Of a DNA stretch of 64,000 nucleotides, positions 35,396-35,665 are shown piece after piece; position 1 is the stretch's first letter, and every line of letters starts with the position of its first letter. A program made the position numbers and the translations under genes. The notes beneath the pieces are model-generated. The model was given only the letters and a program-made list of their open reading frames with translations, was not told where the DNA came from and searched no databases. Source of the stretch: an uncultured Clostridium sp. (GTDB lineage Bacteria > Bacillota > Clostridia > TANB77 > CAG-508); assembly GCA_948468045.1 (NCBI GenBank), contig CAOKGO010000006.1, forward strand, positions 3,372 to 67,371, in the 5' to 3' direction.

Positions 35396-35665
35396 TAAGA
35401 AAGTTCTCTGAACTTCCTATAATAGAAACGTTCCACAGAAAATTGCTTTGCAATTTACGCGAGAGAACAATAGTGGGCTGATTGATATTCTCTAATTTTT
35501 ATATGTAGTGTTCAGCCCACGTTTAATTGTTCGTCTGCCAAATTTGCTTTAGCAAATTTGTGTAGAATGTTTGATGTTATAGGGAAAATCTTTGATTTTT
35601 CCTATAACAGAACAAAGACGTGGCATGAAAAGTTCTCTAAAAGGTCATAAAATTTTAATCATGCC
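35396..35665 (-). repeat. Family A element (minus orientation) with a second family-A variant (type II) nested inside it
   Basis: H2-I and M match the reverse complement of 1707-1852. A roughly 145-bp type-II element (gtgggctga...tcagcccac / tgccaaatttgctttagcaaatttg / gttatagggaaaatctttgatttttcctataac) is inserted before the H1 module. gaacaa is duplicated at both insert junctions. Confidence 0.7.

Follow-up and report, generated by a model that had tools for sequence, protein, structure and literature searches.

A repeat family in the window

The spacer beside an acyltransferase gene of the window, by which we mean the whole 64,000-nt stretch of DNA that was analysed, holds two copies of a repeat, one nested within the other. 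Both belong to a family of non-coding repeats of ~145-160 nt, family A, which consists of three modules, H1, M and H2, and of which nhmmer and a covariance model identified 10 full or partial copies in the window. All seven sites that had been picked out earlier from the letters alone are family A according to nhmmer, the covariance model, pairwise repeats and a seven-copy alignment, and to these are added a partial M+H2 copy at 61446-61537 on the - strand and an H1 relic at 2227-2270 on the + strand. The copies and the hairpins beside them are the following.

1699..1848 (model span 1694-1858), + strand: full type I copy, adjoining a terminator-like hairpin, downstream of a tRNA gene
1849-1889, - strand: terminator-like hairpin beside the 1699 copy (terminator scan)
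2227..2270, + strand: H1 relic, opposite a full copy at the equivalent site of L034
7750..7890 (model span 7742-7905), + strand: full type I copy, with the terminator of an upstream ABC gene on one side and the promoter of uvrA on the other
7897..7918, - strand: terminator-like hairpin GGGGAGTTTATAGGAACTCTCC plus TTTTAT, adjoining the 7750-7890 copy and present in the empty allele too
35377-35684, type II on the + strand and type I on the - strand: two elements, nested (nhmmer, covariance model)
43800..43944 (model span 43795-43960), + strand: 145-nt type II copy whose boundaries carry a 9-nt ambiguity
43951-43987, - strand: terminator-like hairpin adjoining the 43800 copy (terminator scan)
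45044..45205 (model span to 45211), + strand: decayed type II copy without the 5' arm of H1
45206-45239: hairpin adjoining the 45044 copy, just past the dnaJ stop codon
58530..58683, + strand: decayed copy upstream of a + strand gene
61298..61537, - strand: two copies in tandem where convergent genes meet, first a partial M+H2 copy (61446-61537) and then a full type I copy (61298-61457)

Family A is not a product of chance, because the counts of its stem pattern and its loop motif far exceed expectation: GCATGA-N24-36-TCATGC has 5 matches in the window (4 of which are family copies) where 0.01 would be expected, and 8 matches of the H1 loop motif compare with an expectation of 0.65. The layout proposed in the sequence-only reading, with H1, a palindromic M and an H2 in two variants, is borne out by the alignment and by consensus folding. 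The H1 stem (GTGGCATGA/TCATGCCAC, enclosing a conserved loop of ~30 nt) is present as described there, but the real stem is longer by an outer helix, GAACAAA/TTTGTTC; in the order used by that reading, H1 is preceded by the core AGAACAAAAG. The M palindrome occurs in two forms, AAAATTGC-TTT-GCAATTTT and AAATTTGC-TTT-GCAAATTT, and H2 has the form TATTATAGG-AAGTTC-nnn-GAACTT-CCTATAAT or an AAAATC/GATTTT variant, the AAGTTC/GAACTT and AAAATC/GATTTT pairs being mutually compensatory. The earlier description of the copies as always intergenic holds for the family generally but fails at 35 kb, where the core of the outer H1 overlaps the stop codon of the acyltransferase gene (35673-35675).

A type II element within a type I element

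The nesting that had been proposed for 35396-35665 is genuine, with a type II element on the + strand lying within a type I element on the - strand. The spacer is composed as follows.

35347..35384, + strand: hairpin of another repeat family (GGGCATAATTGGGACAGGCACTGAATGACCC), then aatttgttct; dG -15.7
35385..35429, - strand: H2 of the outer type I copy, a hairpin (tttgttctattataag aaagttc tct gaacttcc tataatagaaac; nhmmer, covariance model, DNA fold)
35430..35463, - strand: M of the outer type I copy, a palindrome (aaaattgc ttt gcaattt; from the sequence)
35464..35608, + strand: inserted type II element, 145 nt, with a 7-nt ambiguity (equivalent span 35471-35615)
within 35464..35608, + strand: core of the insert, AGAACAAT
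35473-35481 and 35513-35521, + strand: H1' of the insert, gtgggctga / tcagcccac
35533-35569, + strand: M' of the insert
35575-35609, + strand: H2' of the insert
35609..35675, - strand: H1 of the outer type I copy, with its stem arms at 35620-35628 and 35659-35667
35609-35615: second AGAACAA, in the outer H1 module

On the + strand the order is outer H2, outer M, ...gagAGAACAA, TAGTGGGCTGA...CCTATAAC, AGAACAAagacGTGGCATGA..., outer H1, and GAACAA stands at 35465-35470 and again at 35610-35615. The hairpin at 35347..35384 ends 6 nt before the H2-side junction of the outer type I element.

Comparison with orthologous spacers, fetched with the acyltransferase as anchor, shows an uninterrupted type I element (...TCATGCCTCGTTTTTGTTCGCCCACGAAAATTGC...) at the same spot in three assemblies whose acyltransferase is 98% identical (L052, L053 and L054), and no family A copy in that spacer in relatives whose acyltransferase is 86-91% identical. 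The nesting is therefore a true insertion into a resident element. Metagenome contigs often break at these repeats, but the probability that the nested structure is a repeat-caused artefact of assembly is negligible: two independent metagenome assemblies (L044 and L045) span the whole spacer with the same sequence except for one loop base, a third (L046) is concordant over its reach, and another genome, ABMPRH_47_0, carries the same composite at an unrelated locus (L007, alanine racemase / Band 7 gene). At L007 the 139 nt compared, from one junction anchor to the other, match the insert exactly, the junctions are identical, and the derived M sequence TCTCGCGTAAATT is common to both composites. 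The composite in the acyltransferase spacer shares derived bases with L007 and not with the orthologous type I element of L054. The presence of the same composite at L007 indicates that the composite was copied as a unit or that a simple element was replaced by conversion.

Structure and distribution of the family

RNAalifold predicts three hairpins in the consensus, and folding of the sequences relative to shuffles gives z -8.0 for a single copy as RNA and z -6.8 for the 35-kb composite as DNA. The covariance model recovers 70 copies or parts in ~360 kb from 12 species-level Clostridia MAGs. In this alignment, which was fitted to the model so that pairing is somewhat inflated, 93.7% of cells are paired and 40 of the 42 pairs show changes on both sides; the covariation score of 0.237 exceeds the 0.02-0.05 of slid controls by a large margin and was reached by 0 of 500 shuffles. 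All three hairpins of family A are selected for pairing.

A scan for the exact H1 loop motif in one genome per species (185,579 species genomes) gave 45 matches; these lie in 42 stretches, and the 12 MAGs concerned all bear the label uncultured Clostridium or Clostridia. The family is thus dispersed over 12 species-level MAGs, and the local confinement that the sequence-only reading had allowed for does not hold. The H1 loop and the M module are conserved across the 12 species, and the stems vary by compensatory substitutions. Since the modules are found in differing combinations, the description of the family as modular is correct: M type a occurs with H2 type I in at least 11 copies, M type b with H2 type II in 8 and with H2 type I in 4-5, about 10 H1 modules are solo, and about 10 copies consist of H1 and M with a collapsed H2 palindrome. 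Many copies are decayed or truncated. Neither a scan of viral contigs nor a blastn search of plasmids gave a match to the element. Rfam at the gathering score found one tRNA and nothing else in the whole window, and at a permissive threshold gave only chance-level hits over 35250-35700 (E above 0.7); family A has no Rfam match of any kind, group II introns and ribozymes included.

Presence and absence among close relatives

The recent mobility that had been suspected is supported by three presence/absence differences between relatives that are ~96-99% identical in flanking DNA or protein; variation of this kind between strains had been proposed as a check, and family A is thus mobile or copied. 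The three sites with an empty allele are the nested insert, 43800-43944 and 7750-7890, and two of the three events have boundaries that are ambiguous by 7-9 nt. The 43800-43944 copy is absent from L016, a stretch of ABMPRH_47_0 (JAAWEC01), which is one of the 12 MAGs with the H1 motif and is 94-98% identical to the window, and the flanks join cleanly there. The 7750-7890 copy is absent from four assemblies (L068-L071) in which the UvrA fragment is 99% identical, and the 7750 alleles also differ over ~30 nt beside H1. At 7750 and 43800 the direction, insertion as opposed to deletion, was assigned by parsimony.

Copies also differ internally. In the sister genome (L034), unrelated DNA replaces the H1 module at the 1699 site, and beside the tRNA gene a full copy is present where the window has only the H1 relic. 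The decayed 45044 copy is ~25% different between the window and L016, with nearly identical flanks. Spacer alignments across species (L032/L021 and L017/window) were too diverged for junctions to be defined. Exact-protein look-ups returned nothing on record for a 76-aa ORF and, for dnaJ, only alleles identical to that of the window.

A split of uvrA by the copy at 7744 was suspected, as relatives have 942 aa and the window 604 aa, and was rejected: tblastn places the element before the start codon, and distinct frameshifts account for the break in the gene.

Ends of the element

The sequence-only reading took gaacaa at both junctions for a possible target-site duplication, an interpretation that does not stand; it is the terminal core of the element together with a look-alike in the target. 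Among 37 full copies, the sequence preceding H1 is nearly always (A)GAACAAAAG, while that following H2 varies (ATAAAAG, ATAACAAAAG, AGAACAAAAG, AACAAAAAA), with a second base that covaries with the H2 5' arm. The right end thus reads TAAAAA, TAACAA or GAACAA against a near-invariant GAACAA on the left, and because the two sides neither equal each other nor vary together between copies, this is not a duplication of a variable target. The repeats flanking the nested and 43800 inserts equal the conserved core of the family.

The 7750 site, the cleanest empty/filled pair, shows the same at the level of alleles. With a slash for the junction, the empty site reads CCTTTTAT/GTTAT and the filled site CCTTTTAT/ATTATAGG...CTTTTGTTCT/GTTAT; over a longer stretch, the empty allele is ...GGAGCTTTCCTTTTAT/GTTATTAC... 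and the window allele, on the same strand, ...GGAACTCTCCTTTTAT/ATTATAGG...CACTTTTGTTCT/GTTATATC... The empty site contains neither GAACAA nor TTGTTC, and at most 1 nt is shared between the junctions, which indicates that the core comes with the element. In other copies, what looks like a second core is a T-rich stretch (A-rich on the other strand) that pre-existed in the target. No terminal inverted repeats were found in the 37 full copies, in which the left end is AGAACAAAAG-GGCATGA and the right end GAACTTTCCTATAAT.

Target sites

We refer to the reverse complement of the H1-to-H2 order as the active strand, on which the target precedes H2. A hairpin of at least -8.5 kcal/mol in strength that ends 3-14 nt before the junction was found in 17 of the 22 solitary H2-side flanks (77%), where it is followed by a T-rich tail running to the junction. 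Of 300 sites picked at random 4% passed the same test, as did 5% of 300 T-rich random sites, and among H1-side flanks the share was 12-17% (Mann-Whitney p about 1e-9 and 4e-5 for the H2-side enrichment). The hairpin abutted is usually the terminator of the upstream gene. On the active strand, the targets are GGGGAGTTTATAGGAACTCTCC-TTTTAT/ for the 7750 copy, CTTTTAAAGGGAAAT-AAA-ATTTCCTTTTAAAAG-TTTTTTTAT/ for the 1699 copy and AACATAATCACTCG-TTTTA-TGGGTGGTTATG-TTTTTTTGTT/ for the 43800 copy, and the outer type I element at 35385 adjoins the hairpin of the other family plus TTTGTTCT. The target hairpins belong to the host, since they are present in empty alleles. The 5' flanks of nearly all solitary copies end in TTTAT, GTTCT or TTGTT; events with an empty site number three, two of them with the ambiguity of 7-9 nt.

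A separate consensus terminator scan of 1-10000 and 42000-47000 predicted seven terminators in all, of which three adjoin family A copies (7918-7897, 1889-1849 and 43987-43951). The common layout is stop codon, terminator, element, promoter and next gene, and strong promoter-like sites lie just past elements at 7690-7662, 43774-43746, 45042-45014 and 35306-35278. The nested insert lies, on the active strand, directly behind the outer H1 hairpin plus GTCTTTGTTCT, and tandem copies obey the same rule (...CTTTTGTTCT/ATTATAGG...); tandem and nested copies can thus be attributed to the H1 of a resident copy, which mimics a site of hairpin plus T-tract. One copy, L009, shares 12 flanking nt (ATGTTTTTTTGT) with the 43800 copy, yet has no hairpin and does not fit the rule.

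The active strand is the G-rich strand, which is also the gene-sense strand, for 51 of 64 copies, and is G-rich in 35 of the 42 copies of the strong-skew subset. Relative to the H1-to-H2 strand of the element, the flanking genes are (-,-) in 28 cases, convergent in 16, (+,+) in 5 and divergent in 4. The orientation bias of ~80% is accounted for by insertion behind terminator-like hairpins; as a sign of a lagging-strand preference it is confounded, because terminators too follow the direction of genes and of replication.

Search for a mobilising enzyme

In the DNA inspected (~0.4 Mb), no transposase was found beside any copy or as a multi-copy ORF, and no RAYT, IS200-like or Y1 (HUH) gene was seen in this related DNA. 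Clustering of ORFs of at least 100 aa from the window and 51 loci gave ABC ATPases as the sole multi-copy group, and a Pfam search with 44 ORFs, including every ORF bracketed by copies, gave housekeeping genes only. Among the 42 stretches with the H1 motif, there was no parent insertion sequence with the same ends and no copy in which H1 and H2 are separated by a gene.

Two candidates were considered and rejected. The start of an IS110-like transposase in L052 was dropped as mobiliser because the recognition of a fixed long target by IS110 misfits the variable targets. An integron attC or Xer/dif-type site, raised by the AAC...GTT symmetry of H1, was dropped because the core misfits GTTRRRY, the spacers are those of housekeeping genes and no integrase lies nearby. 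What L052 and L042 have in common is 49 nt inserted within H2; the IS110-like gene is situated past this insertion.

A model for insertion, and its alternatives

The copies have no inverted-repeat ends and no target duplication, and they are inserted behind a hairpin plus T-rich tail in one orientation. We are fairly confident that family A is a mobile element targeted to sites of hairpin plus T-tract. The fuller reading, which we hold to be reasonably probable, is that of a lineage-specific, non-autonomous mobile family of ~145 nt that lands beside terminators and is moved by an enzyme of HUH/Y1 type in trans; the assignment of that enzyme to the HUH/Y1 class specifically is tentative and drawn by analogy.

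On the active strand the element reads as H2 hairpin, M palindrome, H1 hairpin and a T-rich terminus, CTTTTGTTCT, of which the gaacaa core is the complement; the H1 hairpin lies 9-10 nt from that end of the element. Copies are placed in a single orientation immediately 3' of a hairpin with a T-rich tail, mostly the Rho-independent terminator of the preceding gene, which puts them ahead of the next promoter. The H1 hairpin and T-rich tail of the element imitate such a target, so that according to the model new copies also land behind resident ones and form tandem arrays, and landing behind the H1 of an oppositely oriented copy gives the inverted nested copy at 35464-35608. The chemistry would be a single-stranded, hairpin-guided cutting and joining by a trans-acting enzyme of HUH/Y1 type, such as IS200/IS605 TnpA or RAYT. 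Two T-rich stretches would serve as cleavage motifs, one being the tail at the target and the other the terminus of the element, each paired with A-rich sequence across its hairpin; the terminus would pair with GAACAAAG on the far side of H1. Between the target tail and the A-rich 'guide' across H2, pairing is good at the 7750 and 43800 sites, whereas the nested insert pairs poorly. An HUH/Y1 enzyme in trans is favoured since the pattern matches the single-strand 'peel and paste' transposition of IS200/IS605.

The main rival, which we think rather unlikely, is spread without an enzyme of its own, by replication stalling at a hairpin plus T-tract, a switch of the nascent strand at microhomology to a similar site with an element, copying of that element, a return switch, and later gene conversion that makes copies uniform or replaces them. 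The junctions coincide with short identities between target and element (TTGTTCT, TTGTT+GTAT and GTTAT), copies diverge between near-identical strains far beyond their flanks (with a replaced module in L034), the derived bases that the acyltransferase-spacer composite has in common with L007 fit conversion, and the ~0.4 Mb inspected yielded no transposase. Template switching, however, does not need the conserved 30-nt H1 loop or M, which are kept in 12 species, and the copy number and the uniform 145-nt unit of both recent type II insertions suggest dedicated machinery. A further proposal, with a small chance of being right, is an undescribed mode of DNA movement in which a tiny, protein-less element would use any terminator-like hairpin plus T-tract as landing pad, the exact site being set by pairing of the internal A-rich guide next to H2 with the T-rich tail of the target. 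The driver would be either a structure-specific enzyme that has escaped recognition or the cell's replication machinery. The sequence-only reading had likened the family to a MITE, and the classical form of that idea, in which a derivative of a DDE-type insertion sequence is mobilised in trans by a staggered cut that leaves a 6-7 bp gaacaa duplication, is very improbable. The elements are indeed small, numerous and intergenic, and AGAACAA flanks the nested insert as ATACAACAA flanks the 43800 copy, but these flanking repeats always match the conserved family core and never a variable target. The two ends, AGAACAAAAGNGGCATGA on the left and ...CCTATAAT on the right, are moreover unrelated, without terminal inverted repeats, the empty site of 7750-7890 contradicts the idea in that nothing is duplicated there, and no matching insertion sequence was found in the 42 stretches, the ORF clusters or plasmids.

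The copies could alternatively be functional elements of the host, acting as back-up or bidirectional terminators, insulators, 3'-end stabilisers, outward promoters or small RNAs. Their covariation is strong, H1 on either strand is a hairpin between an A-tract and a T-tract, like a terminator, copies lie between a terminator and the following promoter, and H1 has a 9-of-12 promoter-like match. Such matches are not above shuffle expectation, however, and poor transcription is expected behind an existing terminator; copies are often decayed or truncated, have no match in Rfam, and differ in presence or absence between near-identical strains at housekeeping loci. Host function is compatible with mobility and by itself leaves the nesting unexplained. 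As a full explanation we consider it improbable; a regulatory role as a side effect is possible and unnecessary to the explanation.

Comparison with known systems

By analogy, family A appears to work most like the palindromic elements derived from IS200/IS605 and like REP/RAYT systems. IS200/IS605 elements have hairpin ends, always insert 3' of a short motif without duplication, recognise that motif via guide pairing beside a hairpin and favour the lagging-strand template (PMC5027513). Like these elements and their non-autonomous derivatives, the palindrome-associated transposable elements, family A has hairpins near both ends and makes no duplication; it appears to insert 3' of a one-strand motif that resembles its own other terminus, and the sequences at the sides of its hairpins can pair. 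Its orientation bias may likewise be toward the lagging-strand template side, but terminator direction would give the same bias. Unlike IS200/IS605, whose ends usually have similar hairpins and whose target is a tetra- or pentanucleotide, family A has an H1 and an H2 that are unrelated in sequence, a third, internal palindrome (M) and an apparent target that includes an upstream hairpin, and no Y1 transposase or TnpB gene was found with it in ~0.4 Mb. The failure to find a transposase there and the lack of kinship between H1 and H2 mean that family A cannot be filed as an IS200/IS605 derivative.

Family A also resembles REP/BIME and REPIN repeats (RAYT/TnpA-REP), which are extragenic palindromes downstream of genes, in mosaic clusters and alternating orientation, with short conserved motifs that bound the modules and with a presumed HUH enzyme in trans. 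REPs are single G+C-rich palindromes of 20-40 nt, whereas the unit of family A is 145 nt, A+T-rich and made of three different hairpins, with a conserved 30-nt loop; no RAYT gene with copies on both sides was seen in the DNA inspected, where the genes bracketed in this way have housekeeping functions.

The pneumococcal BOX, RUP and SPRITE repeats cluster and insert into one another, and SPRITE resembles a Rho-independent terminator (PMC10969869). Family A is similarly small, modular, intergenic and mutually inserting, in a Firmicute host. RUP is a MITE with inverted-repeat ends. The module sequences of BOX, RUP and SPRITE, which belong to a different organism, are presumably unrelated to those of family A, and we know of no description of a precise placement behind pre-existing terminators for any of the three. 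The insertion sites of group IIC introns are T-rich motifs that follow the stem-loops of terminators or attC sites (PMC7923331). Family A, which lands behind a terminator hairpin plus T-tract, is like them in site choice only: they are ribozyme retroelements of ~2 kb with a reverse transcriptase, whereas family A is 145 nt long and has no Rfam match. Correia, ERIC and classical MITEs are, like family A, small, numerous, structured and intergenic, and vary in presence between strains; the terminal inverted repeats and short target duplications of those elements were not found in family A.

Significance

These findings add an abundant and recently active repeat family in uncultured, low-G+C, spore-forming gut Clostridia, a lineage with no isolate genome among the genomes and assemblies searched. 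The family limits the quality of MAGs, because it breaks metagenome assemblies at housekeeping loci, and it could serve as a strain marker. Precise placement behind terminators without inverted-repeat ends or duplications is known for group IIC introns and is expected of single-strand (HUH) transposition; to our knowledge, it is undocumented for small bacterial repeats. The enzyme, once found, would widen the range of hairpin-guided DNA mobility, and the mimicry of its own target by the element offers a simple account of how tandem and nested clusters build up.

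Additional repeat families

Besides family A, the ~145-nt non-coding mobile repeat, we identified three further repeats in the window and in related genome and metagenome stretches, as follows.

Copies of the additional repeats (window coordinates unless a related stretch is named)
33313-33429, 37979-38097, 59585-59670 and 61560-61592: second repeat family, TGAGACAATAGGGACAGGTCTTnTTTGTCTCA
35312-35385 and 42711-42792: third repeat, GGGCATAATTGGGACAGGCACTGAATAGCCC, direct tandem pairs
20276-20370, 21870-21901, 52436-52467 and 55215-55246: fourth repeat, ATAGGATTATGGGGCCGTCCCCAAATCCTAT, palindromic
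L042 3385-3420 and L017 5606-5640: fourth repeat, further copies in relatives

Copies of the second family in the window are mainly inverted pairs spaced 20-50 nt apart, a doublet layout that is REPIN-like, and the TGAGACAATAGGGACAGGTCTTnTTTGTCTCA motif is also found after family A copies in two related stretches (L014 and L030). The second family and the third repeat have the core GGGACAGG in common, and the hairpin abutted by the outer type I element of family A is itself one copy of GGGCATAATTGGGACAGGCACTGAATAGCCC. The fourth repeat flanks two paralogous ORFs (20371-21522 and 22871-23923), for which all Pfam matches, to winged-helix DNA-binding domains, were sub-threshold. Separately, a 48-nt unit is duplicated in tandem at 40686-40781 (perfect to 98%).

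An identical 49-nt insertion, GGTACCATATTAAGTATAGATAATCATTTATTGATTTCTATACTTTTT, was found in the 3' arm of H2 in two type I copies of family A that occupy different loci in related stretches (L042 3322-3372 and L052 3726-3786). In L052, the insertion is followed by an ORF with the start MFAVGIDISKSK..., where the contig stops; this ORF start resembles an IS110-family transposase.

Variation in gene content

The uvrA gene of the window (4777-7608, minus strand) appears to be a pseudogene interrupted by three or more frameshifts, located around 5870, 5663 and 5150. Relatives encode an intact UvrA of 942-968 aa (89-92% identity), and gene calls in numerous independent assemblies give the truncated product of 604 aa. 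The four assemblies without the family A copy upstream of uvrA (L068-L071) carry a UvrA fragment 99% identical to that of the window. Downstream of uvrA, these assemblies contain a phage-type integrase and a transposase of the IS110 family (DEDD). On the upstream side, they retain little of the two ABC-transporter genes (2089-2346, vs. 7906-11258 in the window), the remnant at this site being a chimeric 85-aa ORF.

Elsewhere, a small ORF upstream of dnaJ (46485-46735) contains two internal stretches, of ~105 and 142 nt, that are absent from L016, a contig of the sister MAG ABMPRH_47_0 (JAAWEC01); their absence may reflect either a true deletion or an error in the assembly of the MAG.

Contig ends at family A copies

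Family A copies are the exact end points of many metagenome contigs from this organism (L001, L046-L051 and others). Repeats of this family are a systematic cause of MAG fragmentation in the lineage.
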